Numbered from the whole stretch's first letter, positions 5,951-57,760 are shown. The stretch: DNA of 62,349 nt, filler included, from Hausera hauseri (GCA_046269625.1; 11 parts of 11 records of this genome joined end to end with filler, not necessarily neighbours in it); one strand, 5' to 3'. Numbers and translations: made by a program. The notes: generated by a model from the letters alone, not told the origin.

Positions 5951-6328
5951 TAAACACTTATTATTATGAGTGTCACTTTACACATAATGTTTTCATATAT
6001 AATGAAAATGAAACTTCAGATCCATATCTCTCATATTAGATTATGTTTATAAAACATTATTCACATTCTTTGTTACTTGTGTCTACAATGAGGTACATAT
6101 TTATATATGTAATGCGTTCAAATTTGATAAAAACATTCATGTTTTTTTAAATTAAAACTGGTCTGAGAGACCAACCATTAATTTTTCGTTCATAATATCT
6201 TAGAAACTAAATAATTATATGCTATAGTCCATTCATCAATGTCCTACAACTTATTACTAAAATATTCCACTTAAAATGATTACTTATTTCACTGCACACT
6301 GCTCTGCTTTTAAAACACAACACTGCAC

Positions 6329-8995: not shown

Positions 8996-8999
8996 TTCT

Positions 9000-13479: not shown

Positions 13480-16448
13480 GACGAAAAAATCGTCAACTAC
13501 ACCGAAAAGAGCAGTGGTTGACGAATTGTAAAGACTGTCACTCTCGGCTTTATTCTGACCAAGACGAATGACATGATTTACTTGTTTGGATGTTTAGTCA
13601 TACCGATACCTGCATCCTTGAAGCAGTCTCTGGCGATAGTGAATGTACAAAATACTAACGAGGAATACTGCTTTATTTACAGCATTCTGGCCACATTGAA
13701 ATATGATCAAGTGTCCAGACATCATGTAAATTGTCCAAAGCAGTACAGTAAGTATTTCTCAGAATTGGACTACGACGAGTGTTGGATGCCGATGAAACTC
13801 AAAACCATTCCGGATTTTGTACGGCGTAATTCAACACTGGCAATCAACGTGTCCCGGTACAACGCAATCGTAGAAATACCAGCAGACGAAGAGATATACA
13901 AAAACCCACACGTGAATATAATTTATCGCAGTCGAAACCCGAATGTACGCTCGGTAAATTTGTTGCTGTTGGAGCAAGCAGATAAATTTCACTACGTGAC
14001 AGTAACCAATTTGGACAGACTGCTGAATATGGATCATCATCAATTCATCAAAAATAGTATAATTTGTAAATGGTGCCTTACATGTCTGCATGATTTAAGG
14101 CCAAAAACGACATGGGTAAAACGTGGCGCTGTGCAGACAAAATTCATCATGGACAAAAATGTACGTCATGACAGTCAAAAGGAGCTGAGATTCAGTGACT
14201 GGTCGAAAGCAGACAGTCCGGCATATGCGGTATATGCCGATATCGAGGCAATCCTACAGCGCACAACGCATACGACCAAAAGCACATTCCAATCGCCGTC
14301 GGTATGTTGGTTGTTCCAATAAAAGCCGCCGAACAACCGCAATATTATGTTTTTCATAGCTGGAACTGTATACGCGATTTTCTGCAACAGTTGGAAACGA
14401 TAGTGAAAACGGAAATATTGTTACCGTGGTACAGTAACAATAGCACAAAGCCCTTGATATGGACACACGAATATGAACCGCTGCTTTTCACTGACACCGG
14501 TGAATGTTACCTCTACCACAAAATATTGCCTTTTGATGCACAGGAACGGCTCGTACCCGACCACGATCATTTCACCGCTAAATATCTGGGAGCAGCATGC
14601 AACGCATGCAATTTAACAGGGCGTGTGCGGCCATTCCTACCGGTGATCTTTTATAATTCCCGAAGTTATGATTGTCACCATATACTCAAATGGGCCATCA
14701 ACGGATTTCCTCACTGGGAACTATCCATAATCCCAACAACAATGGAGAAGTACCTGTCCCTATCAGCACGCATAAACCGGTTCTAGGTATGCTTTCTCGA
14801 TTCATTGTAATTTTTCAATGAATCATTGGCGAAGCTGGTAAATGCCTTGCCGGATATGCCGATAACCTCAAAGCAGTTCCCCACACATTGCACACAGCAA
14901 AGGCATATTTCCATATGACTTTGCAAAATCATATGAGCGACTCCGGACAGCAGAGGAATTACCGCCGCGTTGGACAGGAATCACAGAAGATGAATATCGG
15001 AGAGCACAAGAATCTTGGACAGAACTGTTCTGTAGAAACATGTTGGATTACATGCTTCAGTATCTTAAACTGGACGTGTACTTATTAGCCGATATTTTTT
15101 AGGCGTTAAGAGCGAAAGCGTTGGCGCCACTCAACTTTTGCTCAATACCCGGAATGAGTTGGGCATCACCTCTGATGTCACGGGATCGAGATATTGAACT
15201 ATTGCAAGACCCGGAAATGTACAGGCTGTTTGATGTTGGTATTCGTGGAGGTATGTCATTTGTCAACAAGCACCATGTAACCAGTGATGATACCATATCA
15301 CTGTTATATATTGACATTATTAACCTGTACAGCTGGGCGCTTTCAAAACCCTTGCCGTACGGTTCATTCGAATAGGTAGTCAACAAACAGGACCTGGACA
15401 CAATACTGGAAAATGTGTCGAGAACAGACACAACAACAGCAGAAAACAGCTCAATCGGATACCTGATAGAGGTCGATTTCGTGGTACCGGATGAGCTGCA
15501 TGACTTTTTGGATGAACTGCCGGTCGCACCAATTAGCCAATGTCCGCCGGGCTCGAAGTGAAGAAAGTGCTTATCACGCATGAACCGAAGCAAAATTACA
15601 TAGTTTATTGGCGTCTGTTGCAATTTTACATGCGGTTAGTTGTACGCGTCACACGGCTACATCACGCAATCCGATTTGCTCAGGCTCCAATATTCAAGGC
15701 GTACATAGATGGGAATTCGTAGAAATGAACCACAGCTTGTACAAAGTTCGAAAAGGACTACAAGCTGAAAACAATTGTCTGTACGGAAGAACAGTAGAGG
15801 ATCTGAAAAGGCTGCTCAATGTACGCCTGTGCAATAGCGAAAAGCGGTTAGTCACGTACACGAGTAAGGCGCAGTTTCGGCGGTCAGTGCACATTGCCGA
15901 TGGAGTGGTTTCCGTCCTTTTAAACAGAGATGTCTTTCTGGATCAGCCAAGTTACATTGGACAAGTGGTATTTGACCTGAACAAGATGCGGATGTATGAG
16001 CTGCAGTATCGCGATTTGGCACGTTACCGGCAATTGTTCAGCGGCGGCGGCAGGATCAATAAAATTGCCGGTGACACAACAACTGCACCAAATGATGACA
16101 GACGGATTACTAGGCACGTCCAATTACCCACAGAATCATCAATTGTACAGCAATGATATCACAAACAAAATCGGCTGCTTTAAGGATGGAAGTCAAGGTC
16201 GGGTTCAGTATCGGGAATGGGTATTTCTACGGCTAAAATGTTATAGCCTTTTAACTGATGGTGGACCGAAAATGCGCGCCAAAGGAATTCAGTTGCCCCA
16301 GATGGAAATAAATCACGTTGATTATTATCGTGCCTATTACAAAGAAAGAGGACAATCAAGAGCTGATGTGTCTCAAACGATCATCCGATCGATTGAGCAC
16401 CAGCTGTATACGGCGACCAATACAAAAGTCGCTTTATTATGCGTTTAG
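13480..16448 (+). pseudogene. Decayed protein-primed family B DNA polymerase (Polinton/Maverick/adintovirus type)
   Basis: Ordered motifs across frames: IVNVQN..EEYCFIYSILA, YADIEA, DHDHFTAKYLGAACNACNL, FYNSRSYDCH, KGIFPYDF, YLKLDVYLLADIF, GIRGGMS, YIDIINLYSWALSKPLPYG, NCLYGRTVE, GCFKD, KCYS, RAKGI. Confidence 0.9.
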
Positions 16449-17402
16449 AAGAAAACACGTATGAATTCGGTGCTGATGATACAGACAGATCAAATTACTG
16501 TGACAATTCATTGTGATTTCTTTATTTCCTTTTATTTCCTTGTCTTTGTCTTTTGTTTTATTATCATTTAATTTATCTCTATATTTATATATTTAACTAA
16601 ATATGACGAGAAACGATATCAAGAACAAAATCAATAAAACTTCTTAATTATAAGTTCAAATCAAAAACAAAGTAAGTCAAATCANNNNNNNNNNNNNNNN
16701 NNNNNNNNNNNNNNNNNNNNNNNNNNNNTTAATTAATTAANNNNNNNNNNNNNNNNNNNNNNNNNNNNNNNNNNNNNNNNNNNNTTGGTTTTAATACAAA
16801 TGCACCGGATTTTAAAGTTCTTGTAAATCCCAATAATATTATAGTCCAAGAGTCTTTTAAATTGGTCAGTACTTTGATGTATTTTCTCTGTTTCGGCTTG
16901 GCTTGTGCCATTTTTGAGGCATTCTTATCAATAGATCGGTAATTATATAGGCTTGGGCTCCAAACTGATTATAGTAAAACATTTGAAATCTATATCGGTA
17001 GGTTTGTCCGAAATGCAAATAGCAACATTTTCTATGAATTCCATAAGGAAAATCTCATGTTCTCATCGTGGATCTAGTTACAAATATTATTTGAAATTTT
17101 ACATGGCTCTGAATAGGTTCGCTTGCTTCAAACCAACCGCACGGTTTGCTTCAATCCATATCGTACACTCTAAGTGATTGCTTGTTTTTGATATATTTTC
17201 GTCTTGTCACATATTGTAACTTTTCGGTTAGAGTTATCGATTTCACGTTCGGTATGGACGAAGCGATTAACGATAAGGCGAGAACTATTTGCACATATGA
17301 TATTGGTCTGGTCACTATCGACTACGCTTTCTTTTCTTTATTTGTTTTGCTCGAACGCAAATTATAGCGTTTGTTTGGTCTTATATCCGTTTTAACTACT
17401 CT

Positions 17403-18300
17403 TTAAATCGAGATGACCTCTTCCTTGCCATTTTTATTTATATAAACTGTGGTCGGTGTAGTTTTGGTAACTTCATAAGGTCCTCTGCCTATCCTGGTAA
17501 GTTTAAGAAATGTGCCTTTCTTTGCCACTAGATAGTGTACGTAAACCCAATTTCCTGGTTCTAGATCGTGTGGTTCAGCATTTTTGTCATATTGATTCTT
17601 AAATTGTTCCTGATATTCTCTAGATAATTCCTTGGCTATTTCCCAACACTTGTATAGTCTTGACTGTAATACCTCGATAAAATTTTGCTCTAAATCTTCC
17701 GCTCTTGTTGTGTAGGGAATCAACCCTAAATCTGTAGGTAGTACCGCTTCTCTGCCGTACATCATGGAAAATAGAGTGAATCATGTTGCAGGATGTGGAG
17801 TAGTATTAATGGCAAATTGCGTACCTTGTAAAAACTCATCTCAATCTTTCTGGTCCTTTGCGACTACTGTCGATAAGATTCGCATAACTGTCGCGTTTAG
17901 TCGTTCAACCATTCCATTACATTGGGGATGATAAGCTGTTGTAGTTAGTCATTCGATTTCGAAAATTTTGGTAATTTTATAGAACAATTTGCTCTTAAAG
18001 TTTCTCCCTCGGTCTGTCAAAATTTGTTCGGGTGGCCCGTATCTGCAAATAATCTTCCGGACTACTACTTCTGCCAAGATCTCAGCCTTTTGGTCTACTA
18101 AAGCTATAAGTTCAACGAAATGAGTCAGTCTGTCTACACAGGTCAAAATGTATTTGTTGTTTTTGTGGGCCGTGGGTAATAGTCCTACAATATCCATAGA
18201 CATTGCTTGCATTGGTCTATCGGGCACGTCGGATCCTATATCTATGAGTGCATATACTTCCCAATCTTCCAACTGAATTTTTGCAAATGGCCTTCCTTCG
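17403..18300 (-). pseudogene. Aspartic protease N-half fused by deletion to Gypsy integrase core and GPY region
   Basis: GRPFAKIQLEDWEVYALIDIGS, then directly PDRPMQAMSMDIVG..LTDRGRNF..TTAYHPQCNGMVERLN..GRGPYEV; three in-frame TGA stops. Confidence 0.88.
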
Positions 18301-19059
18301 ATTATCATACCATAATGGTTTGGTGCTATCCGAGGGTGTCGGATTGTGGACACTTTATAACCGTTAATGGTGACTTCCGTAGTTCCAGCGGGCTGGTCGA
18401 TTAATTGTCTCAGTTCTTCAATTGGATACAATTCATTATTGGCAATATTCGCGTTTTCTATTGCTTGGTTTCTAACTGGCGGCTGAATTACTTGGTTTCT
18501 GAGATGGTATGTTTCACGGCTTCCGGTAAATATTGACTGCCTTTCGTTTGGTCTAGGTATTCTAGGTGAGTAAATTATGTTGTGATCGTCGACTGCTGTT
18601 CGACGATGTGGGGTAGCCGTTTTTTCCGTTTTGTGGACCTTACCCAATATTCCATAGCGTTTCGTTCCTTCGTAAAGATCCTCTAAACTAAACAGCTTCC
18701 GATAAATATCTGTCTGACACGAGCTCATGGATTGTTTCTCGCAATCTTCATATATAGGTGCCGTTGGCGGCAATATTGGTAATGGTGGTTTCATAACCGA
18801 GTAATTTTTGTGTCTGTTCGGCCTGGGAATGACGTCTCCTCCCTTAGGCTTGTCATCGTCGGAATTATTTCTTCGTATCTTACTATCTATAAACCTTTGC
18901 CTGTAATCGAATATGTGTCTCTTACGTTTTCGATTATGGTAGCTAACATGTCGTTCCACATTTGCTTTCCATTTACTCTCTTCATAAGCCTTTAAGAATT
19001 TGCCGAAAGGGGTAATAATAGCCGTTAAGATTTTGCACGAAAATCCTGTCAAGATGAAT

Positions 19060-20820
19060 ATCTCGTATCCATTTATAACTGCTTGAATTATCGCTTTGAT
19101 CAGCTGGATCCAAAGATAGATTGCTAGGAATCCCGACGTGGCTTGTCCAAATATCAGGAATCTTCCCCAAATTTTGTACAATATTTCCGTGGTTACTTTT
19201 TTATAATATCCAACACCAAGTAGTGACTCCTATTTCGCTTGGTAGCGCGAGTCCTGCAATATTGTATGCATTGCTCTGTTTATTTCATGTGTGCGTTGAC
19301 GGGGAAAAGCGAGAAACTGTCTGAATGCCTCTACTTTCTTTGGTCGATAAATACCCTTTTCAGCCGTATCTTGGAATTTATCATCGGTTATCCCTTTTAT
19401 TAAGTTTGTCTCTGTCAACTTGGTAGGTGGTGCAATAATACCGCCGTTCGGTAAAGTTACCCAGTCGGTTTCGCTTCGTCTGAACATTGGCTCGCGTAAA
19501 CTAGTTTTGCAGTCTCTTAAGATTGTCGGTTGAGTAGAATTAGACAATGGTACTCTGGTAATTGGTGTTACTAACCTCGGTGCGTCCTGGTATATCACTG
19601 GAAACTCTTGTATACACCTCTTCTCTTCCATATTAATCGGTACATCTTTCTTCTCGCACTCATACGTCAATAAGACCTCTCCGGTTACTCGTCCGAAAAC
19701 ATCTTCCTTCATCGAAATTATTAGTGATGCTAATTCAGGATTAGGATATATTAAAGCAAACTTAGTCGTCATAACTTCCAAGTCTAATTTACAATCATTT
19801 CTTATCGTTTTGTGGTATAACTAGGCTATCCCGCCTTGTTCTTTATAGTAGAAATAGTCATCTCTGTTTTTAGATAGTCCTCAATTCAAATGTCTTGAGT
19901 CTCGAGTTTAAACGTCCTAGCGTTTATCTCCGTCTCAGCCACAAAGAATGCTTTGTAATTGGTGGCGTACATTATGACGTCACATCTTGTGAGTACATCT
20001 TTCTTCACAAAGTTTAGTCCGTGAGTATCAGAGATGAGTATTGTAGGTGTGGACTGTTCAGCTACATCTTCTCGCGTTTTAAAATGAGTTTCTGTGCTAC
20101 TTTTATACCGTTTTCCTGTCGTCTCATTGAACTTAAGTTCTTTAATTCTTATAAAGTTGCAATCGGTCTTGGCTGGGGGTTCCCAAATTATTACAGAACT
20201 TCGAAACGGACATGTGCCGTCCTGAATGTGGCACTTGTGGTTTTAGGTATAAAGTTTGGTAACGTTGTGGAACATTACATTCTGTATACGCATTTCGGTT
20301 TCGTAAAAATTTACTACTACGATGTTCGACTCTAATCCCTTTTCGGTGTCGTATTCTGCACCGTAACAATGTCCGGTGTGCATGTCTAGCCTTCCTGCAG
20401 CCACTTTATATACTCTGATTATTTTCCCTTGTTTCATTCCAGTTCCATGCCATACCACTTTATTCTTCCGGTCTCTCTAGCTTGCTTACAATGTTTCCTT
20501 TCTAAATTCATCGGAATTGGTGGGGTTGTTGGCTTGATTATTGACGAGTGTCCATGTACCAGTCCACAATGGAAGATGCTACGAGATCGCCGCAACATAC
20601 ATTCTACTCCATCCACGGATATTAGTTCGAGTTGTTGATATAGCACGTAATTTTTCTCTTTTGTTTCTAATTTGCGTGGTCTCGCGTCGTCGCACGTTTC
20701 TAAGTCCATTAATGAATATTTTTGGCCAAGTTTAAATTTTTCACAATAATATACTGTAACCGCACCCATTTGTCTTATTAACATCATCATGGTCAAAAAA
20801 TTGATTAGCCAGCTCGACTC
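19060..20820 (-). pseudogene. Chuvirus-like (class III, gB/G-type) fusion glycoprotein with signal peptide and C-terminal TM
   Basis: WLINFLTMMMLIRQMGA-VTVYYC..YSLMDLETC..ECMLRRSRSIFHCGLVHGHSS..CKQARETG..GHCYG; later FGRVTGEVLLTYEC..CIQEFPVIY..TPITR..KGIY..FLAFP; TM FLIFGQATSGFLAIYLWIQLIKAII. The Cys pattern is that of chuvirus-type glycoproteins. Confidence 0.8.
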
Positions 20821-21524
20821 ATTTCCTCTGTGATTTCCGGTTACGTTTCGTAGCAGATCTTCAAATATATTGTTACAAAAGAATGATCTACTTTGGTGTT
20901 CTTCCTTTTTTTTCGAATAACTTAGATCAGTTCACTTCTCGAGGTAGTTTCCTGGCAGTCTTCCGTGCTAAGCTAGTGGCTTTGTTGAATTCATCTTCTC
21001 GGTTTGGGTTAGTTTTAACGGCCAGATATAACAACACTTTTCTTAGTTCTTCTACGGTATTTTCTACCATAATCTTTTCGATTATCATCTCGTTCAAAGT
21101 ACTTCTAAATAATTTACATGGCCTTGGCGGCATTAAATATGACCTTCTCTTTCTCATCCAGCATGTCACAGCTGAGACTAGAGTGGTTTACTATTCGTAT
21201 CAAATTCTTCATAAGTTCGCTCAATTCCTCGTTATCCGCATTGAAGTTTGGTATGGACATTTGTCTCAATTCTTTGATTAGGTATCCACTACAGTCGATT
21301 TCTTCTCGCGTTTTCCGTGGTCTACCGATAGGACGCTTCTGTTTTGTTACAGTAGGTACACTGCCGTTTGGCGGTACCAAATTTTTATCGTATTGCTCAT
21401 TATCTTCGTCTGTCTGCAGATATTCGAAATATACTGCGGCATCTCGGACTTCTATTATTCATCCTACCTGCTGTTCTGCTTTAGCCTTCCTTATAACTTC
21501 CTCCTTTGTTTCGTCGATAGTGGT

Positions 21525-21745
21525 GGTTACCACTAACCAGTTTACCTCGCCCGGAATAATGCCAACTTCTATCAATAATTTTGACTCGTCTAGTGTCTTT
21601 CCTCTAAAATAAAGTCTATAGCTCAGCTCATTGGCGTATCCATTGTCATTTATCCACAGTAAAACATCCTTTACAAGGGAGCGCGTAGTGAACTCTTGTT
21701 CCTTCTCGTCCATCCAGTCTGATACTATCTTTACTGGGATTACTT
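21525..21745 (-). pseudogene. Ubiquitin-like domain within the element polyprotein
   Basis: IPVKIVSDWMDEKEQEFTTRSLVKDVLLWINDNGYANELSYRLYFRGKTLDESKLLIEVGIIPGEVNWLVV aligns by eye to ubiquitin [31 protein letters not shown]; no terminal GG. Confidence 0.65.
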
Positions 21746-24700
21746 CCTCTGCCCTTAAATTTAAGATTTTAGAATATTCCTTGAGTAAAAGCTTAAATAC
21801 CGTATAGAAATCGTACCTTCGCTAGCTAATTTAGTTAAAGTGGGAGCTAGATGTCTTAATTGATTTTCAGTAAGGTTCAATTCAATTAATTGAATTAAAT
21901 ATTTCTCGGTTTGTACCAGGTCCAGAAGCACTCCTACATTGAACCTTTGGTTCGGAGAATATACCACCATTACATCCAATTGTATTGGGGTTTCCGGATG
22001 CTCGGCAATCATTGCGTCTAAATATGCCTCCCAATCTGATTCGTTTTTATCGTCTGGTGGTTGATAGCCCCTCGACAATGTATCAGTTGGCCTGTCCACA
22101 CCTGCGGTCCATGTAGTTTTTAGGAGGTCTTGTAGTTTTTGTTGCATTTGAACCATTTTCGTCATTCGGAAATATCGTCCATTAGCGGACGTTTTGTGGA
22201 GAAATGTTAACAACGAGCATAATCCTTCGGGTAAAATTAAACTCTTCTATTGATATTTCGTTAGTTCAGACGTGAGATCTCGTTGCCATCTTTGAACGAA
22301 TTGCGACTTGTCAGCTTTTTCTGCTTCTGTAAGGGCGTATTTGTTTTTATAGACCTCGAGTTCTCTAGCTAGTTCGTCTAATCTTATCGTTCTCTGTTTC
22401 GTCTTAATGCAAGTTTCTTCGACTTGTTGTATCTGTTGCAACAGTTGTCTTAGTTTCTCGTCATTAATTTCTGACATTTCTGCTATCAATAGCGCTAATT
22501 CGTACATCTCGTTAATATTCTTTGAATCAGAATCTATCGCATCTAATATTTTTTTACAAATTTGATCTCTTCGAAACTAAGGCGGTGGTCGATCTTTATT
22601 TTAATTAGTTCAGCATGAAGTCTTTGATCCCTTCCGTCCATCCATTCTTGTGGCTAATGTAAGAACTTCACTGCTTCTTCCACGATTGACAGATATTCGG
22701 GACAAAAGTCCAAGGTTTTAAGATCTTGGATCGTGATTTCTTAAATAGACTTGGCTGTCAGACACCGTATTCCTTTCAGGCGGACATCTCTTAATCGCCG
22801 ATAGAAATCACACGTCGCATTTCGTTTCCGTACGAAGTTCGTTTCTTCGATCATCTTATATAAATCATATAGTATCGTAAATTCTTGTTTCTTTTCCATG
22901 AAGTCCAATTGGCGTCATGCTTCGAATTGGGTTCGGATATTAATTTCTGCCCTCATTGTATCTAGATTTTGGGCGTCTTCCTCCAATCGCTTCTTTACTA
23001 TAGGCTCGCTCTCTGGAAATTCGTTCTTCTGTCTGTTTATTAAGTCACTCAACCATGTTATTACTTTGGACCATACGTTCAACTGATTAGCGATTTTCGG
23101 CTTTGCCAAAATCGCTTTGTCTAACATTTCGCGAGCGTCCTCTAGCTCGTCATATGGACCTTTAATAAAATCGATAATCCGGCAGGCATAATAAAACTCG
23201 TCCTTGTATTCGTCAAACTCGAGGATGCAAGCCATAATTATTTTCTGTGTTTCGTCGTTATTTGGATGCATAATTCTGTTCCTTAAACCACATATCTGCG
23301 ATCGTTTTTCGGCTTCAATCCTAATACGATTTTCCAAATTGGTATATTGCTTTGATGCCGTCGAAGCAATCTTTATCATTTCCATCAAGGGTGGACTATC
23401 TATTGAATCTATGCCCAACATTTCTAGGTCATTTGATCTCGTTCCTTGACCGGTTTCCTCTTGAGTCGTTCGACTACTGCAAATTTAATTTCATCCATGA
23501 CACGCTCTAAGTTACGTGCTGCTCTTTTTAACTTTGGGTTGGTCTTTAATGTAGTTAATACTGACTGAGCTTGGTTGATTCTATCTTCGACATGCTGGGT
23601 AATTTTGTCCCATGCCTCCGGGACCTTCACTCCATTTTTCATCCATATTTCTATTTCATTTTCCCACTTGGCCAATGTTTCTTTTGCCACTTCTTCAGGT
23701 TGATCCAAATCTATAGCTTCACTTAGTTTCCCTTCGCTATATAATTTCATCTTTTTATATAATCTCTCTACAAACTGTTGTTCCTTGCCAGAAATATCCA
23801 CTTGTTCACTCATTGCCTTGAGTTTCTCTAGATTCTGTTGCACTACCTCTGGGTTGAAGCAATTTATCCTCATTCTTTTTAATTAATCGGCATTTTTCCA
23901 CGAGCGTCTGACTTTCCACTTTTTAGGATCGAGTTTCTCTTCATGTTCTGTTTCCTCTTCGCTAGTAGGTAAAGGACATATATCATTTATTTCATTTACA
24001 GATTTCCTTAACTCACCCATGTCGCCTGGCGTAAGTAAATTAATTTCTGGAGTGTTCAAGGCGAATTCTGTGTCACTGTCTAACGCGATTTCGGTTTCTC
24101 TCTTTGCGCTGGACTTCTCCTTAATCATTGGGGATCTCGAACGATCCTTGCGTTTTCGTCTCAATGATGGGCTACGGCCTCTATTCTTGNNNNNNNNNNN
24201 NNNNNNNNNNNNNNNNNNNNNNNNNNNNNNNNNTTAATTAATTAANNNNNNNNNNNNNNNNNNNNNNNNNNNNNNNNNNNNNNNNNNNNGGTCAGTTTCC
24301 CAGATCCAGTTTTCAGCGTCCACCTGAACACATCCGGTATCAGATTGACAACCAAAACCAGAGGCTCCTGATGCAAAACTCAGATGGATGCTGTATATAT
24401 CTGAAGACTACCTGTATGTGTTCTGTGGGCCTAGCCAGACTCACCTCCCCGATCCACAGCTCTGTCTGTCTTCTCAGGCTGCTGAGAAGGAACAATAATA
24501 CAATCCAATTATTAAAAGTCAGAGTCAAAGTTAATTATCTGGTAGCAAGTTCTATCCTGGGACCACAGTGTTTACCTTCAACAGAGTCATAATGCCTCCT
24601 GGTTTGCACAACAGATATTTCTTTTTTTNNNNNNNNNNAGTGAACACCATTCCTTTAACCCTGCAAAATCCAATTCTCTACACCCACTGCATAAAATATT

Positions 24701-29718: not shown

Positions 29719-30048
29719 GAACGGTTTTGCCTGACAACATTAAAGTGTATAAACCATTTCCTTTGTATAAGAGATTAAGAAAGATAATAATGATAGATTA
29801 TATTATACTATAGGGTTAGTCGAAAGTTTCCATAATAATAGAAAATAACTTAGGCAGGGAAGAGCAGAGGTAAAAAGGGGCGCTGGATCTTAGGATAGGT
29901 CAGACCGCCCTAAGAACTCATGACTTCAGAATACCAAAGGTTAGAATGACACAAGCAAATACCCTGAAGGTTTGGTCGAAATAGATATGACTATTTATAT
30001 GTTGGTATACATTAATATTGGATACTAACACTAACATAAAGAACCCAA

Positions 30049-30477
30049 ATGGATCCAGTGGACTTTTATCGAAAAGTGACCGAAGCTATAACTGACAAGA
30101 TTGTAATTGGAGCCGACGTAATTGAAATAGTTATAAACCATTTCAAATGTACAATCCGGCGGATAACTGGAGTTCGTGATATTTTATATCACGAGGATAT
30201 TATCCGTCGGTATCAATTATCAACCAATAACTATAAAGAGCTAGCTCGGAAGTTTTATGACACAAAGGGCTTCCCTCTGCGAAGCACTGCCCTAGCTCAG
30301 TGTTATCAATCGATTTACAAGCAATTAAAATGGACAGACGAATACATTACTCAGGGTTCGGCCTCCGATACGGTGCGAACAACACCAACGGCGTCGCAGT
30401 GTGCAAGAAAGCGAAAAGTCCAGCTGGATGAAACAGACATATTGGACGATGAAATCTATCAGCCCGAGGCAATTTGA
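30049..30477 (+). CDS. Hypothetical 142-aa protein, possibly a retroelement 3' accessory ORF
   Basis: ATG-initiated intronless ORF in AT-rich DNA, basic RKRK motif and acidic tail; no family recognised. Confidence 0.4.
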   Translation: MDPVDFYRKVTEAITDKIVIGADVIEIVINHFKCTIRRITGVRDILYHEDIIRRYQLSTNNYKELARKFYDTKGFPLRSTALAQCYQSIYKQLKWTDEYITQGSASDTVRTTPTASQCARKRKVQLDETDILDDEIYQPEAI

Positions 30478-31246
30478 TATAAATCAAGAACCTCGGGCAA
30501 ATACATACACATGCCTTTAATGTTCGACCAATGATAAATTAGGGGCAATTTCTTGAAACCCCGTCGATTTGTGCAAACTATGGACTATTATGGACTGTGT
30601 GCAAATTGAATGACATAACTTCTATAAATAAGTGTATTTACTGATGTTCTATACTGATCATGTATTCGACGTTAATTTTTATATCATATGCATGATTATG
30701 TGTTAATTGAAATGGAATTTTCCATGGTCAAACGTCATTTTACTTATCTACAGTGGAATTTTTATGAAATCTTTGACCACAAAAATTGCTATATAAAGGC
30801 TGATTTTTCGTGCACTCACTAGAAATAAAATTGACTTGAAAAGACTTTGATACCTTGTATTATGACTTCATGTGAGTACTATTCTTTTGAGTTTGACTGC
30901 TAATTTGTTATTTTTGTACAGTTGTTAGTGAATATACATATGCATCAGAAGGGTCATCGTTGTGTTTTACTCAATAAACAAAGTAATTAAATAACACCAT
31001 AAGCAATTCGGATAATTTTGTCGTCCAGGTCAAAACTACCTGACGACGGCCAAGTAATTGTCAGTAAATAGGATAGTAACCAATAGGTGAGTAACCGGAA
31101 TTAATTCAACTACTCTCCTTGAAACACATTACCGACTAAAAGTTAGGTAAGACACGCCACATACCACGTCCTCGAATTAAGTGTAATTGTTCTTCTGATT
31201 AATTGGTAAAGTTACGAAATTAAACGTTGTTTAATTAGTGAGAACT

Positions 31247-33200: not shown

Positions 33201-33888
33201 ATACGAATAACATCCATTGACGCTGCAACTGCAGTTACAATGAATCAGCATTATTTATATATTATTTTTCATTGAAATTTTACTGATTTGTTTTGTTATT
33301 ATTATTATTATTATCATCATAATTATTGTTCATATTATTATTTATAGTAGTAGTTTTACTACTACTATAGTATCTAGTACCTAGTATAACTGACTGAAAT
33401 GACTGAAAAATAAAAGGACAATCTATTGTGTTAATCCCTTTATGACTGAAAAATAAAAGGACAATCTATGTGCAATCCTTAGTGTTAATCCCCTTCTAAG
33501 TTATTTGTATCTACAGTGACAATCCTTTTATGTGTTTATTCTGACATTACATTATTATTATTGATTGTGTAAATTTTATGTATTTTGTTGATTTTTGGGA
33601 TTGCGTATTGTCAATTATGTCATGTAACATAGTATAAATACTGTAGTAATTCTGANNNNNNNNNNNNNNNNNNNNNNNNNNNNNNNNNNNNNNNNNNNNT
33701 TAATTAATTAANNNNNNNNNNNNNNNNNNNNNNNNNNNNNNNNNNNNNNNNNNNNCTGAGGACATTTCTGGATTCTGATTTTCTAACTGAGGGTTTTCGT
33801 CTGATTCGGAGCTACTCCGTGCCGAGTCAGTAATTGAATTTACGTTAGTAGCGTGTCTTCTTCGCAAAGAGTACGACGCCAGTGTGCC

Positions 33889-33906
33889 TCCTCACTCGGG
33901 GCACCA
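33889..33906 (-). promoter_or_regulatory. Primer-binding site, tRNA-Met (elongator type)
   Basis: TGGTGCCCCGAGTGAGGA, complementary to a tRNA-Met-like 3' end TCCTCAC[A/T]CGGGGCACCA. Confidence 0.8.
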
Positions 33907-33907
33907 G

Positions 33908-34149
33908 TGTTAAGTTTATGGGTTATGAAAGAAGCTTGGATTTCACACCCTAAGCTTAAACTCTACTTATTATCGATATAGTCTAGGGTTTCTCCTTCCC
34001 ACTAGACTTGGTTTCTTTTATTTATTCTTAAAAGCAGCCTGTGGGGTCTGCTTGGATTAATTGCCCTTATGGTGGGTTCGGTCAGGAGGTACACTGGCCG
34101 AATAATTCCCTCTACTTATAATAATTTTATAAACTTCCCGACAATTACA
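33908..34149 (-). mobile_element. Putative LTR (~242 bp) of the contig-7 element
   Basis: TGTAA...TTAACA ends, TATA-like TATATAAG and AATAAA inside, PBS 1 nt downstream. The upstream boundary is uncertain because there is no canonical PPT. Confidence 0.65.
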
Positions 34150-34606
34150 GGTCAGGAAAAAAATGCGGGTTAAAAGTTTTGTATATTAAATTTTTCCTTA
34201 ATATTATTTCTAATACAAGTATATTACAAAAGAAATTGAATATCAAAATATTTAATTGATGAGTAAAGTATTTAAAATGATACAAATCAACAATAATCAA
34301 AACAGAAAAACTACGTTATCAAATAAACATAAAACCTTAAAAAGAAACTCACATGAATCGTATTGCATGATAGTAGTCTTTGCTATTGAGAAATAGAGAA
34401 AAATACACCAGTATATATAGGGCGATAAAAGATCAAGGTACGCCCAAAAATTCGGTCAGAATAATAAAAATTCCAGGCAAAATTAAGTGAATTAAAAATA
34501 TATGATCAACAAAAACAAATGAATTAAAATTATGTGATCACACAGGTCAATATCATATGTTATTGTCAATTGGATTATATGTGAGTTGTTTTTGTCAGTC
34601 AAGCTG

Positions 34607-37600
34607 TTATTTCGTCATATGATCAGGACTTGTTGTTGTTGCCTCGACACCTCCCTTGCCAGACGAAGCCGTCCGCGGCTTCAGAGTTCGAGTTTCAATT
34701 GAACCATCGGGATACTGATAATTAACAGAGACCAGAGTTCCCCATTGACCTTCTCGTTTGATGCGTTTTCTTATTGTAACCTTTTGGTTCGATGACCCTG
34801 GTCGCTTTGCCGATTTCGTTAGGTCGATATAGGGGGTAAGATTCTCGGATTGAGTAGAGGTTGGTAGAGAGATCGATTCAACTGGACAGCTTTGGTTTAC
34901 CTTACTTTGAAAAGAATGTTGTTCAGATGGAAGAGCAGGTGTTGGCTCTGGATCTACAGAATTTTCAGTTTCCATAGAGGAATTTAATTTGTTCGTTTCT
35001 ATTAGGTTTTGGTATTCTTCTGTTAGTTTGTATATTTCTAATATGGTTCTAGCTTTATTCATTGTTCTTTGGGGATACCTGTTATTATTGTACTTGCTAA
35101 GCAAGGTCTTGGCCATATTTTCTTGCTTGGGGTTTATTGTTTCATTATAAAGTAGATCACTAAATCCTAACACCTTGCGATAATCTTGCATAAGGATATT
35201 TTCAAACGTACTATATAAATTTAATCCAACAATATATTTTCCAACTATATTTTCCTTAATAGTTGACCGTATTAAAATTAAATCTTCTTTCCCAACAATG
35301 TCCGGTTCCTTTAGGCCGGTGAAATGACTATCATAATTGTCCACCCTGTCACGAGGGCAGATTATTTTATCCATTATTGTTTCACCTTTAATATCTAAGA
35401 GGGTAATTTCTACTAGGGCCATTTCCTTTTTCCTAATGGGGCTTATTAAATATGCGGAATTTACCGCCAATACTAAAATATCGTTACTAGATAAAGTGGG
35501 TGATCGTATAAATGATGTGCCTTTTTCCATTTGGGATGGATTCGGAGCTGTTATTGGGTACATGGGAACTTCTATTTCTAACCGGGGTACAAATTCGCTT
35601 CTCATTGCTTCAATGTATATAATTGGACAAGGTCCTCCATAAGTTCTGAGAAGGAAACTAGCGTTATTAAGAAATCTTCCATCAATTCTTATTGTATTAA
35701 GCATTAGGATCTCTATTGAATCTGAAATGCCATTAGTGTTAGCCTTGCTTTTTATTATAATGCTTTCCTTAGTAACCGAAATATATAAGGCCATTGTATT
35801 CTTTGATATGGTCATTAGGTCATTTAGATTCGTTGACAAACTTCGTAGTTTTATGATGAGGCCTGATCGTTGATTAACTGAGTGTCCTTTTAGATTATTA
35901 GGAATGAGGGAGGCTCTTCCATAATAAGCATAATCCTGGCTGTTGGTTGCCATAAGATTGGCAGTTATATTGTAGTAAAATGATTTCGGCCGCTGAACTG
36001 ATTCTGAGCCTTCTTTGACTATAAATAAACATATCAATGGCAGCCAAAATAGTTTAGGAATATGTATAGTTTTATATTTTATTTGTTTATTGTAGGTCGC
36101 AAGGAATTTGGCGGCCTGATTTTGTACATGCGCACATAGACATAGGGTTATATCTTTCAACGGTTGGTTATGCCGTTTATGGTTGGCTTGCTCGTCAGCT
36201 CGCCATTCTTTATCAACACCCGTATACAGCCCAACTGACTGTTCAAAATCAATAGGTTTTTCAGACTCCAAGTCATTGATACAATTTTCCCGTAATAATT
36301 TTAATTGGCGCAAAGTTTTCCTTGTTTTGATTTTTTTACGTCTTGTTCTATAACAGCAAATTATTATAGGTAATAATATGATTATTAGAACCAGGAAAAC
36401 TCCTAAAGTAATAGCTATCCAAAAATATTTGCTGGGGTATTCTATTGGAATTTGTTTAGTAGTTATTTTTATAGTTTTTGTTGTAGTAACCATTGGTAAT
36501 TTTAACGTTTTCTCCAGTTTTCTAACAATCTGTAACGTCTGCCCATCTTCATCTAGTTCTGTTACGACTACTTTATAATTCGTATTAGCTTCTAAAGGCA
36601 TACAAGCTGATGTGGGTTCTTCCGGAGTTAAAACTCCTTCACTTATAACTTTGTGGTTAAAATAACATTCAAATTTTATATTTGCATTCTTTAAATCAGA
36701 CACTGTAATAATTAGTGAGTAAGTCGTTGGTTGAACAATTACATCCAGTTCTTTGATGCTCTTCTTAGGTTCCATAATAGAGCTGGTTACCGTTGATAAT
36801 GTGGCTGATGTACTTGGTGTATTCGGTCGTGTTGTCAGAGAGGTTGTCTTTCTCGTTGTGGTAGAGATTATTTTTATAGGGGATCTCATTATTATTTCTG
36901 GGCCTATTAACATATCCGACCATGTCCAATCATCATTCGTTTTCAATCCTGTCCAATACCATATCATATATTCCTTATCGAAGGATATGGAACAACATAG
37001 ATAAGGATTTTGATAGAAAGGTCTACACTCTATTATATCAGTTTTGTTGAATATTCTGTATTTAATTGTCCGATACTTGGTTATTGGGGAATCTGGTTCA
37101 GATGTTATACACGGTCCATCCTTCATGACTTTTGTGTAGAATGTTACAAGAAAATCTGGTTTGCTAAAGTAGTATATTGTACCAGGAAACGAGTAATAAG
37201 ATGTGTACCATTTTCCTTCTATTATTTTAGAAACGGCATACTGAATTCTATATGATATTCCATATGATAATCCACAGCAGACGTGATTAGAATGTCCTGC
37301 ATACAAATCACAAGATTCAGTATTTACTCTTTGTGACGTAGATACTTTTGATATCCATATGTAGATATACTCATTTATAGTTAAATTTCTATTTCCGAAT
37401 ATTCTTACGCAGGGGTATTTTCCAACTTGAACTTTATGGTATATCGGCATCAATTCTTGAGCTGATATGCAAGTTACCAAACTTAACATCGTAAGTACTG
37501 TTACTAGTAGTAATTTTAAATTTCCATTCCTTATTTTTGATTCTGTCGGCGCTGATTTACACCGATTTACGTGAACTTTTATCGGATCTATTTTGTTCCT

Positions 37601-39724
37601 TTTATTTTTATTCAAATAGATATTCGTTTCGTCGACCTTCTGGACCATAAATGGACCTTTATATGGTCTATCTAACTTTGGTGTTCTGCCCTTTTTACTC
37701 ATCGGCGTGTGTAACATGACTTTGTCTCCAGGCTTAAAACTGTGGGACTTGGCTTTCTCGTCATATCTATTTTTATACTCTTTTTGGCATAACTTCATGT
37801 GTCGTGAAGCCAGGTTCCACACGTACCCAAGTTTTTCTTTCAGTAATTCTCTATACTCCATGTCCTTTAAATGTGATACAGGCATTTTAAATTCTATATC
37901 AACAGGCATGTGTGTATCTCGAAGATACATTAAATAAAATGGAGTTTCTTTCGTGGCAGGATGAATAGTATTCCTTATAGCAAACAAACATGGTTTAATG
38001 TATTCGTCCCAGTCATTTTGTCGTTCGTTAACCATAGTTGCAAGCATATTGGTCAAGGTTCCGTTAAATCTTTCTACTGTTCCATTGGTTTGTGGGTGAT
38101 ATGGTGTAGTTTTTAGCTGCAGTATATGAAATATTTTCGAGATCTCTGCCATCACTTCTCCAGTAAAGTTTGGAGCCTGATCCGTTAGTAGTTTAGTAGG
38201 AGCTCCATAGTTAAACACGATTTCTTCTACGAAAGCTTGAGCAATAGTTTGAGCCTTTTGGTCAGGTATTGGGATTACCACTGGCCATCTTGAAAATAAG
38301 TCAACAAACACCAACATGTATTTATTTCCGTTTATGGCAATCGGTAACGGTCCCAAAATATCCATTGCTGAGAATTCCATAGGAGCAGGTGGGCATTCTA
38401 TTGGTTTAAGGGGAACTTTTACTTTGGCTCCTGTATTTTTCCGTGTAGCACAGATAGGGCAACTTTTGCACCATTCTTCTACATCTTTAATCATAGTATG
38501 CCAATAGTATTTCCTTTTTAGCCTGCCCAGAGTTCGTTTCTTAAATTGGTGGCCTCCCAGCATGCCATCATGATATTGCGTTAACAATAGTTTTACATCC
38601 TCTTGAGGGACAACAACGACTAATTTTCCTTTTTGATTATAATATAATGTACCATCTTTTATCTGGTAATTTTCAACAAATTTCGTCAAATGTGTATGGA
38701 GATCATTATCTTTTGGCAGAGTCTTCTTTTGAAGATATTCTTTAATTTGCTTCACCTGTTCATCATTTTGCTGTCTTTGTTGTAACGATTTTTCTTGTTC
38801 TGTTACACTCCAGATGGCTTCTATGACACCTGGTTTGTCTGTTACTCCTTTTTCTTTTTGATCCTCATCCTCAGGTATCCTTGACATATAATCAGCGTTG
38901 GCATTAGCTTTGCCAGTTTTATATTCAAATTTCAAGTCATAAGGTTGAAGTAACATCGCCCATTTCATTAGGCGACTATTTGGGTTCTTATGACTTTTCA
39001 ACCACTGTAACGGTTTATGGTCGGTATAAACGATAATCGGTTTCGTTTCAGACAAATATTGACCATATTGTTCTAATGCGTATACTATAGCAAGTAGTTC
39101 TCTTTCAATTGTGGAGTAATTTCTTTCGTGTTTTCTTAACTTTCTTCCTCCGAACGATATAGGATGTTCTTGTCCTTGATCATCTTTTTGTGATAAGACA
39201 ACTCCGATTCCGACCTTGCTGGCATCTGTAGCTAGAAAATATGGTTTTGACATGTTAGGATATGCCAATACTGGTGGAGCTAATAAACAGTTATTTAATT
39301 GTTGGTATGCTTTTTGACACTCTTGAGTCCAGATAAGCTTAGAATTCTCCTGGAGTAATGAATGTAGAGGAGATGCTATCTGTTGATAGTCTTTAACAAA
39401 TTTACGATAATAACCTGTAAGGCCAAGAAACTTCCGAACTCCTCTAACAGTTTTCGGAACAGGAAAATCTTGAATTTTATTGATTTTTCCAATTTGTGGA
39501 CTAATACCGTCTCTACTTATTGTATGACCTAAAAAGTCAACTTTAGTTCGGGCAAAACAGCATTTCTTCAGGCTAATTTTAATTCCCAATAGAGCACATC
39601 TTTCTAGCATGTCTTTAAGATGCTCCTTATGTTGCTTATAATCGGTTGATGCGATTATAACGTCATCCACATAACACATCATATGTGGGGCATCCATGGT
39701 AATTATGTCCATAGCTGTCTGAAA
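34607..39724 (-). CDS. Gypsy Pol (RT C-half, RNase H, integrase) fused in frame to ~980 aa of cargo: membrane protein and exonuclease-like domain; 5' partial
   Basis: YVDD, FLGH, FLGLTGYYRKF, TDAS, NYSTIERELLA, TDHKPL, NADYMSR; H-H-C-C zinc finger, MDILGPLP, TDQAPNF, NGTVERFN, YKGPF. The frame is open from the contig edge to the stop at 34607. Confidence 0.93.
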   Translation of the reverse strand, partial: FQTAMDIITMDAPHMMCYVDDVIIASTDYKQHKEHLKDMLERCALLGIKISLKKCCFARTKVDFLGHTISRDGISPQIGKINKIQDFPVPKTVRGVRKFLGLTGYYRKFVKDYQQIASPLHSLLQENSKLIWTQECQKAYQQLNNCLLAPPVLAYPNMSKPYFLATDASKVGIGVVLSQKDDQGQEHPISFGGRKLRKHERNYSTIERELLAIVYALEQYGQYLSETKPIIVYTDHKPLQWLKSHKNPNSRLMKWAMLLQPYDLKFEYKTGKANANADYMSRIPEDEDQKEKGVTDKPGVIEAIWSVTEQEKSLQQRQQNDEQVKQIKEYLQKKTLPKDNDLHTHLTKFVENYQIKDGTLYYNQKGKLVVVVPQEDVKLLLTQYHDGMLGGHQFKKRTLGRLKRKYYWHTMIKDVEEWCKSCPICATRKNTGAKVKVPLKPIECPPAPMEFSAMDILGPLPIAINGNKYMLVFVDLFSRWPVVIPIPDQKAQTIAQAFVEEIVFNYGAPTKLLTDQAPNFTGEVMAEISKIFHILQLKTTPYHPQTNGTVERFNGTLTNMLATMVNERQNDWDEYIKPCLFAIRNTIHPATKETPFYLMYLRDTHMPVDIEFKMPVSHLKDMEYRELLKEKLGYVWNLASRHMKLCQKEYKNRYDEKAKSHSFKPGDKVMLHTPMSKKGRTPKLDRPYKGPFMVQKVDETNIYLNKNKRNKIDPIKVHVNRCKSAPTESKIRNGNLKLLLVTVLTMLSLVTCISAQELMPIYHKVQVGKYPCVRIFGNRNLTINEYIYIWISKVSTSQRVNTESCDLYAGHSNHVCCGLSYGISYRIQYAVSKIIEGKWYTSYYSFPGTIYYFSKPDFLVTFYTKVMKDGPCITSEPDSPITKYRTIKYRIFNKTDIIECRPFYQNPYLCCSISFDKEYMIWYWTGLKTNDDWTWSDMLIGPEIIMRSPIKIISTTTRKTTSLTTRPNTPSTSATLSTVTSSIMEPKKSIKELDVIVQPTTYSLIITVSDLKNANIKFECYFNHKVISEGVLTPEEPTSACMPLEANTNYKVVVTELDEDGQTLQIVRKLEKTLKLPMVTTTKTIKITTKQIPIEYPSKYFWIAITLGVFLVLIIILLPIIICCYRTRRKKIKTRKTLRQLKLLRENCINDLESEKPIDFEQSVGLYTGVDKEWRADEQANHKRHNQPLKDITLCLCAHVQNQAAKFLATYNKQIKYKTIHIPKLFWLPLICLFIVKEGSESVQRPKSFYYNITANLMATNSQDYAYYGRASLIPNNLKGHSVNQRSGLIIKLRSLSTNLNDLMTISKNTMALYISVTKESIIIKSKANTNGISDSIEILMLNTIRIDGRFLNNASFLLRTYGGPCPIIYIEAMRSEFVPRLEIEVPMYPITAPNPSQMEKGTSFIRSPTLSSNDILVLAVNSAYLISPIRKKEMALVEITLLDIKGETIMDKIICPRDRVDNYDSHFTGLKEPDIVGKEDLILIRSTIKENIVGKYIVGLNLYSTFENILMQDYRKVLGFSDLLYNETINPKQENMAKTLLSKYNNNRYPQRTMNKARTILEIYKLTEEYQNLIETNKLNSSMETENSVDPEPTPALPSEQHSFQSKVNQSCPVESISLPTSTQSENLTPYIDLTKSAKRPGSSNQKVTIRKRIKREGQWGTLVSVNYQYPDGSIETRTLKPRTASSGKGGVEATTTSPDHMTK

Positions 39725-40193
39725 NNNNNNNNNNNNNNNNNNNNNNNNNNNNNNNNNNNNNNNNNNNNTTAATTAATTAANNNNNNNNNNNNNNNNNNNN
39801 NNNNNNNNNNNNNNNNNNNNNNNNCCCCCCCCCCCCTCCCCCCACAAAAAAAACATTTCGTCAAGACTTCAACGAAAGCAATTGATTGTATGCTTCGACA
39901 TACAGTATTTTGTTTGAAATTTGAAATTCGTAATTCTGTCTTATTTAAATGAAACTTTAATTGATAATCATATTGATTATTAAATTAAAATTAACATTAT
40001 AAGTATTTTTCTTGGATTTCAGTTGTGTTCATATTATTATTAATTGGACCAGTTATTTAGGATCAAATCATGTTTTAGCAATCTAGTATTTTCGACTAAT
40101 AAGCCATACGCATGATATCTCAACGTGATTTGTATACCTGTGCACACAGGATATATAGTAGATCATGAAGGAAATTCAACATTCTCAATACAA

Positions 40194-41281
40194 ATGTTGA
40201 AAAGTTTACTATTGAATTACCTTACAATAGCATTCCTAAGTCGAAATTATGAAGCTCTTACAGTTTCTTTTATTTCGTGGAACGTAAATGATAACAATCG
40301 AATTACTTCGTATTCTGAGAGTTTTATTTCAGATATTTTGCAGTTAAATAACAAGTAAACCTATTGAATACAAAACGATATTTCTATGTGATTTACAGGA
40401 ATGTCGACAGTCCGGATATTTATGCAATTACATTCCAGGAAAATTGTTTTCAATGTAATCACAAGAACTGGAATAGTTTAGCAAATCCATTCATTGATGC
40501 AATCAAATCGAGAACATCGAAGCAGTATAAGTTAATATCAATATCAGGTACTCGACGTTCGAGTGTGTGTCAGAGTCTGTACTGTGCAAAAATAGCAAGC
40601 ATGCATGGTACCACACTTTTAATTGTACTGGCTGAATCATCAGTCAACATTACCGATGTTTTCGAAACCAGTGTGAAAGGTTGCACTTACGAATGGATGG
40701 GTAATGAAGAAAAAGGCGTAGCAATTGTTGGTTTTGCGAATAAACAAAATAGGGTATGTTTCGGTGGGTTGCACCTGGATACTACGAATTTAAATAATAG
40801 ACGTTCATGCATTATTGACGCAATAAATTTGATTAAATCGAAGTGTTCGGTGATATTTTTTGGTGGAGATTTCAATACGAGACCTGCTTCAAAAACAACA
40901 AAAGTTCCAAAAGAATTTATAGATGGAAAGAATTTAACATTTCTGGTGGAAATAAAAAAGACCGATGATATGTCGGGCGACAATCCATTCAGTGGTCAAC
41001 CAAATTTACTGAAGTACATTGCACAAAATCAAAATATGAAATTTAATGAACCATTTGGTGTACAACCGAACTTTTTACCCACATATTCAATTGATACTTC
41101 AGTGAAATGTTCAACTTATCCAAATTGTTATAAACCATCAAGATTTCCATCATGGACTGATCGGATAATTTATTTCCCAACTGCAAAGGTCACGTGTTCC
41201 AAATATTCATCAATGAGTTCATTTGAAAATTTAAGCGATCATCTTCCAGTTTATGCTTTTTGTGATGTTAAAGATAATTAA
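40194..41281 (+). CDS. Inositol polyphosphate 5-phosphatase-like (EEP fold) protein, 347 aa, join(40194..40354,40399..41281), with predicted signal peptide
   Basis: ISWNV, DIYAITFQE, CFGGLHL, FFGGDFNTR, FLPTY, PSWTDRIIY, SDHLPVYA; in-phase 44-nt GT-AG intron; AATAAA right after the stop. Confidence 0.88.
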
Positions 41282-43960: not shown

Positions 43961-48852
<4,892 letters not shown>

Positions 48853-56878: not shown

Positions 56879-57760
56879 GTAGGAGAAATATGGAAATCTG
56901 GCCGACCCCGGAGGTGGGTAATCGATAAATCAATTTTGCACATGCGCCAATCGATAATGAACATGGAGCACTATCGATTGGTAATGTGCCAGTCAACGGT
57001 GCAGTTAGGCATCATTGCTAAGCACATTTTTGCACATTTCACAAAACGATGGCTGCACAGTGCACTATTGATCGAATTGATCGGGACAAAGTGCTAATTG
57101 ATGTGCACATTATTGCACATTGATTGTCGCATAGTGCACGTGCACTGCACATGTTCAAGTGTGCAAAAATCAATAATATCGGATTTCCGACAATTCCAAT
57201 ATTGATGATTAGCACATGTGACCGGGTGCAATCGATTGAAAATACGGTGCGCTATACGAGTGTGCAATTAGAATTTAAATCAATCGAGTGGATTTCGAAT
57301 AATATCGACTCGAAGGTGAGGTGGGACAGACTGTCTGTAGGTTTTATTTGCCCTAAGGAGTCGAAATTCGATACAACATTTAGCGGAATTAGATAGGAAG
57401 TAGAGTATGGACATCTCGAATATTAAGTCGAATATTCCAAATTTGAACATTTTCCCCTTCGACTATCGAATATCGAACTATTCATAAAATCTAACAAGTG
57501 CATTCGATTCCCCATGTTTAAATGCACCTTGTGCCATTAAAATTATTCCATGATAAGGAATCAATATTTCTAATTAAGCAAAACGTGCAGTTAAAGCCCA
57601 GTAAAGCAAAAATTGATAAATCCTTAAGCGCGCACATATAGGATGCCATATATTCCGAATCGTATTATGGCGTCAGATATTCGAATTTGAGCTTTAAAGT
57701 CAAATATTTAGCTATTCGAACTCGAAAACTCGAAGAATCTAATGACGTCATTCGATTCGC
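56879..57760 (+). repeat. Copy of the contig-8 interspersed repeat, abutting the truncated glycoprotein relic
   Basis: Colinear similarity to 41372-42600 (for example GATCGGGACAAAGTGCTA and AAGTGTGCAAAAATCAATAATATCG). Confidence 0.8.

Follow-up and report, generated by a model that had tools for sequence, protein, structure and literature searches.

The DNA analysed here (the window, 62,349 nucleotides of Hausera hauseri) is a series of short contigs with N-TTAATTAATTAA-N linkers between them. A stop-free minus-strand frame runs over 34607-39772 (-), and because of these linkers the real sequence within it shrinks to 34607-39724. The contig bearing the element covers 33756-39724 and begins inside the RT, 15 codons ahead of YVDD. 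With residues numbered from aa 1 at window position 39718 on the minus strand, 1,703 codons are open from 39718 to the stop at 34607, leading from a 5'-truncated RT through the integrase and into approximately 980 further residues, and so bearing out the in-frame linkage of this cargo that had been proposed from the sequence alone (the original prediction). At the local composition, the chance of 970 open codons is about 1e-32. The Pol had been called intact, which holds for the frame but not for the element, because gag, protease and the 5' RT are absent from the contig, as is an env region. All of the motifs originally named (KVHVNRCK, the signal-like stretch, the Cys pattern, the Thr stalk, LEANTNYKVVV, the transmembrane (TM) segment and a second hydrophobic stretch) were recovered in their predicted positions. 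In coding order, the features are:

37556..39724 (-): Ty3/gypsy Pol, truncated at the contig end, with 3' RT, RNase H and an integrase that has H2C2, core and GPF motif; Pfam RVT_1, RT_RNaseH, Integrase_H2C2 and rve, catalytic motifs present
37460..37519 (-): signal-peptide-like internal segment, aa 734-753; hydropathy, helix in model, matching segment in 18/20 relatives
37169..37459 (-): distal Cys-patterned domain 1, aa ~754-850; Cys pattern, clade repeat profile 0.7 bits (not significant), pLDDT <50
36884..37156 (-): Cys-patterned domain 2, aa ~855-945; Cys pattern, no profile match, pLDDT <50
36767..36865 (-): Thr/Ser-rich stalk; sequence
36500..36751 (-): predicted membrane-proximal FN3-fold domain, aa ~990-1073; relatives' profile, structural model
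36317..36427 (-): transmembrane helix and basic stop-transfer run; hydropathy 3.24, helix pLDDT ~80
36017..36316 (-): cytoplasmic-side linker, whose last 12 aa are hydrophobic and come from a T-rich tract with AG at its end; hydropathy, sequence
35579..36001 (-): predicted AlkB/2OG-Fe(II)-oxygenase-like double-stranded beta-helix fold, without HxD/E; model pLDDT 81, structural matches, motif scan
35009..35488 (-): predicted ISG20/REX4-like DEDDh exonuclease fold, a pseudo-nuclease in that its catalytic positions are substituted; sequence, profile, fold
34607..35008 (-): low-complexity C-terminal tail and stop, without a PDZ-type ending; sequence
33756..34000 (-): candidate polypurine tract (34000-33989) and candidate 3' LTR start, cut by the contig end; purine run, single LTR copy, boundary tentative

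Pfam matches above cut-off were RT, RNase H, H2C2 and rve, with zero in the cargo past aa 562. The order RT-RNase H-integrase in these matches, the GPF at aa 688 and best Pol matches that are all gypsy-type place the element in Ty3/gypsy (Metaviridae). The Pol searches listed 120 of 920 near-length matches and 14 longer ones, and a tree of 127 out of 136 sequences, the 9 with an incomplete RT or integrase being excluded, positioned the window Pol within a clade of 21 with FastTree support of 1.0. It is 43-48% identical to these relatives across most of the query. PF24664 (Monjiviricetes fusion glycoprotein; chuvirus/gB-type) is present in the polyprotein of 14/20 relatives, the records of the remaining 6 beginning <=651 aa before RT, and it precedes the protease in 12/12 relatives with scanned positions. 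The env of the relatives opens with an internal hydrophobic segment like the one that follows the integrase. An in-frame signal-like segment and TM after the integrase occur in 18/20 relatives compared with 4/113 other hits, the layout being env upstream of the protease, then integrase, signal-like segment, one to three repeats, stalk, TM and a short tail. A profile built from the relatives' tails detected 32 repeat domains in 16/22 clade tails and 0 in the other 119 of 135 proteins. The C-terminal ending [ST]-x-[VIL], which we take to be the class I PDZ-binding consensus, was found in 10/20 relatives and 1/113 others; as the relatives are kin, neither this count nor the 18/20 represents independent events. 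Tails after the TM measure 21-121 aa in the relatives, compared with approximately 580 aa and no PDZ-type ending in the window copy. The content of the slot varies, with a small Cys-rich domain and no repeat in P0038, P0040 and L005, and the ectodomains diverge fast while Pol stays 43-48% identical across the clade. Of the original proposal of a novel cargo, the real and linked cassette therefore stands, but as a trait of the clade rather than a one-off capture, since it is found in 18/20 relatives.

Many relatives have two or three protease-like domains, and some have ubiquitin-like or ankyrin domains. Among the 17 relatives scanned, several of whose records are partial, ubiquitin-like domains were found in 1 and ankyrin in 3, and MATH, BIR, BCL2 and dUTPase were absent at E 0.01. 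Extra aspartic-protease-like domains follow the integrase (by Pfam or by eye) in P0036, P0037, P0038, P0042, P0044 and P0047 and in the further tails P0154, P0155, P0157, P0158, P0159 and P0161, with ankyrin repeats beside them in P0036 and P0037. Upstream of RT, L003 has an extra signal-repeat-TM cassette (aa 1371-1560 of ORF 1-9636) and P0039 an extra repeat (aa 63-163), and the cassette has therefore been duplicated within the polyprotein. Two clade members, P0035 and P0043, are filed under bacterial MAG names and are likely to be misbinned animal contigs.

In the window copy, KVHVNRCK ends the integrase at 37579-37556 (-) and the signal-like stretch follows at 37519-37460 (19-aa hydropathy 2.13), where the polyprotein may be cleaved after aa 753. 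The PC/C/CC cysteines lie at aa 770/803/814-815 in domain 1 and 870/898/908-909 in domain 2. These had been predicted to be two tandem domains, and the pattern is indeed present in both, but their mutual likeness is confined to 16 residues (score 41, with 9/1000 shuffles equally high). Domain 1 is possibly a diverged FN3-like repeat, and domain 2 aligns with the second repeat of the relatives in one alignment; an FN3 fold was not recovered for either of these distal domains by modelling (pLDDT <50) or by the repeat profile (0.7 bits for domain 1, no match for domain 2), and alignment A8, used in folding the ectodomain, is poor across domain 1. For the membrane-proximal domain, which includes LEANTNYKVVV at 36595-36563 (-), a profile made from the relatives only, with the window outside the training set, gives aa 990-1088 a score of 22.6 bits, the highest among 200 shuffles being 5.9. 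The model of this domain (pLDDT 57-82) aligns with fibronectin 6mfa at Z 9.2 (rmsd 2.5 over 82) and with CD45 d3-d4 at Z 8.8, and FN3 rows dominate its structural list, although unrelated Ig-like folds reach Z 8.5 against the FN3 best of 9.2. Foldseek returned zero matches for it at E 0.001 or better, Pfam fn3 had no sequence match in the cargo at E 0.5, and Atlas scores for FN3 features (0.86-0.87) are treated as a lead only. The profile and the model are consistent with a seven-stranded FN3 beta-sandwich, and agree with the type I membrane-protein cassette with an FN3-like domain that had been put forward; the structural check suggested for the ectodomain thus succeeded for the proximal domain by Z score but not by Foldseek. 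The whole ectodomain model has a pLDDT of 49, its usable parts being the proximal domain, the signal helix and the TM. The TM proper spans 36427-36353 (hydropathy 3.24) with the basic run after it, the linker of approximately 110 codons is open throughout, and the second hydrophobic stretch, at 36052-36017, reaches merely 1.56 over 19 aa.

The cargo has no Pfam match to known retroelement envelope families (F-type, gB/chuvirus-type or phlebovirus-type), in agreement with what had been noticed originally; in contrast, PF24664 scores approximately 300 bits in the relatives' env. A word-based search with the cargo gave 5,837 candidates, 0 of them at E 0.001, and scans with the ectodomain of viral and metagenome contigs gave 3 and 37 pattern matches, respectively, of which 0 were confirmed. 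No specific host receptor matched the cassette in sequence, either in the word-based search or with HMMER over cluster representatives. The latter search, of 1.84 billion cluster representatives against the cargo, returned 27 proteins, all matching the AlkB-fold/exonuclease part and 0 the ectodomain, and its best matches were stand-alone proteins of 210-575 aa, mostly with both a 140-residue N-domain and the exonuclease.

What had been described only as soluble domains can be given identities, namely an AlkB-like fold and an apparently dead ISG20-like exonuclease. The model of window 34970-36010 (pLDDT 81) has the AlkB double-stranded beta-helix fold, and the domain aligns with ALKBH6 (Z 11.8, rmsd 4.4 over 141), the viral prolyl hydroxylase vCPH (Z 11.4) and Ofd2 (Z 10.9). 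Of the HxD/E...H iron-binding triad, no HxD/E was found in the window domain or in 9/13 relatives, the other 4 having an unaligned HxE. Sequons are present at aa 1250 and 1352. A PCNA-like identity for the domain before the exonuclease was considered and rejected, the fold search giving AlkB-like structures and its Atlas hits staying <0.8. The exonuclease domain matched ISG20 (E 5.7e-4) and also ISG20L2 in a PDB sequence search, its family profile matched ISG20L2 at E 4e-24, and its model matched ISG20 by Foldseek at E 1.2e-9 (Z 18.1, rmsd 2.4 over 159), a DnaQ-like fold nearest ISG20. At the catalytic D, E, D/E, H and D the window copy has A, N, T, Q and K, so that all five are lost, and we predict from these replacements that the module is catalytically dead. 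The catalytic residues are retained in 12/15 aligned family members, the third position often being E, and are lost in the window copy, P0002 and P0006, although P0006 retains one acid. These dead copies cluster with support of 0.97 (0.92 with P0025) and sit apart from cellular-type REX4/ISG20-like proteins in the tree. P0002, the closest dead relative, also bears a hydrophobic leader.

Exonuclease-family scans of viral and genome contigs, and a genome-contig scan with P0043, yielded no confirmed match. A metagenome scan for the module gave five loci (L001-L005, of which L001 and L002 are short). In L003 and L004 the module is intact and forms a separate ORF downstream of a gypsy polyprotein of >2,900 aa, and in L005 the AlkB-fold/exonuclease gene lies downstream of a signal-TM ORF. 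The in-frame fusion of Pol and module was observed in the window copy only, 0/135 other Pol proteins holding the exonuclease module. As judged from sequence, the clade carries the nuclease module as an accessory gene, which in the window copy is fused and predicted to be dead. A second fragment of a dead exonuclease module lies at window 30043-30516 (+) and shares 48% identity with P0002 across 160 aa (E 1e-44); the host therefore carries more than one lineage with the exonuclease gene. Small accessory ORFs that are coiled-coil-like and have no Pfam match above cut-off flank the exonuclease gene at L004 9105-9770 and L003 11586-12020.

Two public runs (X1 and X2) contain the stretch, X1 being possibly the source sample, and the contigs of both cover all 30 bins, with no listed piece spanning the whole. 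No RNA data set was listed as containing it, a result that has no bearing on expression. Among the variant rows shown, which leave out 15 indel rows and 51 joints, length variants within the cargo preserve the frame: one contig per run has three 1-base insertions in the Thr stalk that sum to +3, and a contig with a variant C-terminal tail has 89 bases in place of 77 (net +12). Indels of one base, by contrast, lie in the non-coding 3' part. A diverged X2 contig covers 35761-36179 gap-free and with 48 differences (stops not being visible), diverged X1 contigs cross the integrase-signal junction, and one X1 contig joins 36142 to 36601, omitting 458 bases that include the TM. In a selection test, 12 of 28 listed differences were synonymous (p 0.05), and in a count over 38 listed ORF differences, a biased set, 4/10 in Pol were synonymous.

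Other elements are present in the window. A decayed element of similar layout occupies 16785-24189 (-), with the protease-RT region absent, chuvirus/gB-type env pieces at 20931-18993 containing stops and frameshifts, and an integrase at 18230-17350; beyond it follow a signal-like stretch and a motif of Cys residues with weak similarity to domain 1 (score 40, equalled in 13/300 shuffles). A broken ordinary gypsy at 43961-48586 (-) has Ty3 capsid, protease, a weak dUTPase (E 0.011), RT, RNase H and the start of an integrase, and a two-ORF LINE lies at 6329-10493 (-), with PRE_C2HC in ORF1 and endonuclease and RT in ORF2. The broken ORFs at 13522-14786 and 59325-61517 (+), for which Pfam gives Endonuclease_7 only, presumably resemble Polinton-type DNA polymerase B. 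An intronless 309-aa ORF at 40352-41281 (+) matches Exo_endo_phos2 (E 2.6e-20) and lies near a repeat shared with 56936-57515.

On balance, we lean towards the cassette being a second, non-fusogenic surface protein, serving attachment or junction targeting beside a gB-type fusogen, because the relatives already carry such a fusogen (14/20). The best reading of the window element, on present comparisons, is that it is the 3' part of a Burro-like, GAG-ENV-POL errantivirus-type giant Ty3/gypsy element; an upstream env of its own would be expected from the clade, two surface proteins being evident in the relatives only. The paired signal and TM segments suggest that the polyprotein would thread the ER membrane repeatedly, once at each signal/TM pair, and that signal peptidase could free the env and the post-integrase cassette, with protease-RT-RNase H-integrase remaining cytosolic and the repeats lying outside the cell. 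In the relatives, the PDZ-type motif with which the short tail often ends would direct the protein to cell junctions or to one cell pole, where particles may bud or may pass to neighbouring or germ cells. In the window lineage the tail runs instead into the AlkB-fold/ISG20-fold module without catalytic residues. We are inclined to place this module on the cytosolic face, either tethered to the membrane or expressed separately by splicing, where it would be a pseudo-enzyme that binds RNA and shields or recruits that of the element, because the second hydrophobic stretch is short, the two folds are both nucleic-acid folds and the intact relatives lack a leader; the alternative, to which we give rather less weight, is a secreted module for which this stretch would serve as an additional signal. 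Maelstrom and EXD1 are given in the available text of one report as precedents for catalytically dead DEDD proteins that still bind RNA (PMC5408684). More tentatively, these elements may constitute an undescribed invertebrate clade of 'complex' gypsy elements, in which entry is split between a gB-type fusogen and a swappable, junction-steered FN3 attachment protein with a PDZ tail, both from one polyprotein of 3,000-4,000 residues, with the addition of an AlkB-fold/ISG20-like counter-defence gene that would here be a membrane-tethered RNA-binding pseudo-nuclease.

Several other explanations can be weighed against the same data. Instead of being carried on particles, the cassette could be displayed by the cell that expresses it and act as a decoy or by interference, blocking re-infection by related elements or damping a host receptor pathway, and this would fit with structural lists topped by FN3 folds from fibronectin, CD45 and cytokine receptors, with ectodomains that change fast while Pol stays 43-48% identical, and with PDZ-type tails, which suit a resident cell-surface protein. 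We regard it as unlikely, as a product encoded in one frame with the integrase would be present where and when particles assemble, no specific host receptor was matched in sequence, and a shared fold proves no function. Still less probable is that the cassette is the envelope of the element, a new fusogen replacing the gB-type env in the window lineage. FN3 repeats on stalks are binding and not fusion modules, known fusion-protein families are unmatched, gB-type env is retained in 14/20 relatives, and a gB-type env precedes the integrase of the decayed, related element at 16785-24189 (-); this outweighs the arrangement of signal, ectodomain, TM and tail in the env slot of GAG-POL-ENV elements, the env-like sequence in the same slot of two other hits (P0103 and P0144), and the fact that the window copy shows no other env. 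An assembly chimera, or the one-off capture of a host receptor gene, might be suspected from a short contig in a repetitive family that no listed piece of either run spans as a whole, but we give it hardly any credence: the parts are ordered identically in independent assemblies of the relatives, homology links the proximal domain to the repeats of these relatives, all 30 bins are covered in each of the two runs, and diverged contigs of X1, possibly the source sample, cross the integrase-signal junction.

A further explanation concerns the joining of the TM tail to the nuclease module and is compatible with the cassette being a second surface protein. The fusion could be an incidental read-through of a formerly intergenic region, with a spliced subgenomic RNA as the source of the module and a T-rich splice-acceptor tract that happens to be in frame accounting for the second hydrophobic stretch, which we consider possible but doubtful. 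In 3/5 related loci the module ATG has a pyrimidine-AG no more than 2 bases away, compared with 68/763 of all ATGs in these loci (p 0.006, post hoc), a T-rich tract ending in AG is directly upstream of the start of homology in the window, no further in-frame fusion occurs among 135 Pol proteins, and the ORF3s of LTR elements are described as typically spliced (PMC5408684). Yet the approximately 110 linker codons are all open and are crossed without gaps by a diverged X2 contig (in which stops are not visible), there is no ATG between the AG and the start of the module, and a hydrophobic leader is likewise present in P0002, the closest dead relative.

Herpesvirus gB-type fusogens depend on separate receptor-binding partners, and no such partner for a retroelement gB-type env was found in the literature searched, the scope of which excluded Repbase and subscription journals. 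With its conserved signal-to-TM architecture behind the integrase, fast-changing ectodomains and PDZ-type tails, the slot that we favour as encoding a second surface protein is a concrete candidate for this partner, and its topology, location and binding are testable with a single protein. The AlkB-fold/DEDDh gene, occurring in active and dead versions, likewise offers a matched pair for studying how these elements cope with host RNA surveillance. The cell-to-cell route of env-bearing gypsy elements outside Drosophila is described as an open question in a published report (PMC13524379).

Neither a post-integrase FN3-TM cassette nor an AlkB-fold/DEDDh gene has been described in the literature searched (Repbase and subscription journals being outside its scope), and the production of two surface proteins, which is likely for these elements, is absent from that literature. 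Parts of the system have known counterparts, which are compared here from the accessible portions of the papers cited. The BEL/Pao element Anakin represents the capture of a chuvirus-type glycoprotein by an LTR retrotransposon (PMC7642597; PMC12440569), but it is not a Ty3/gypsy element and the cargo described here differs from a chuvirus glycoprotein. Troyka was considered and rejected, having neither env nor GPY/F (PMC12440569). Orchid Ty3/gypsy elements carry an AlkB m6A demethylase ORF, and so share with the elements described here an AlkB-type 2OG-oxygenase domain as extra cargo of a large gypsy element; the orchid AlkB is active, whereas here there is the predicted fold only, without HxD/E and joined to an exonuclease, in an animal element (PMC9289625). 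Behind pol, the rotifer gypsy elements Juno and Vesta have an extra ORF for either a small TM protein or a 3'-5' exonuclease of the DEDD family, but their ORF3 is RNase D-like, DEDDy and catalytically intact, in contrast to an ISG20/REX4-like DEDDh domain with an AlkB-like fold, and the window module differs further in being apparently dead and fused, with an FN3 membrane protein in front of it (PMC5408684).

Closer counterparts are the GAG-ENV-POL errantiviruses whose env is of the HSV/gB type and which are known from Nematoda, Bryozoa and Platyhelminthes, with which the clade shares a Ty3/gypsy Pol and, in the relatives, a gB/chuvirus-like env before pol (PMC13524379). The main text of that report has 0 mentions of fibronectin, exonuclease, ankyrin or Burro, its accessible portions name no second surface protein, and its supplements may list members of the clade (PMC13524379). 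In Burro/GYPSM1, a giant planarian gypsy element, env lies in frame between gag and pol (PMC6431247). Shared with Burro are the very long polyprotein with gag-env-pol in frame, the env of Burro matching mononegavirus glycoproteins, the ubiquitin/SUMO-like and ankyrin domains, found here in P0156, P0036 and P0037, and accessory ORFs that could instead be subdomains of the polyprotein (PMC6431247). The likeness is drawn from the published description, and scanning of 17 relatives, several with partial records, detected none of the MATH, BIR and BCL2 domains of Burro. Unlike Burro as described, the elements of the present clade combine a post-integrase signal-FN3-TM cassette with repeated proteases and an AlkB-fold/exonuclease gene (PMC6431247).
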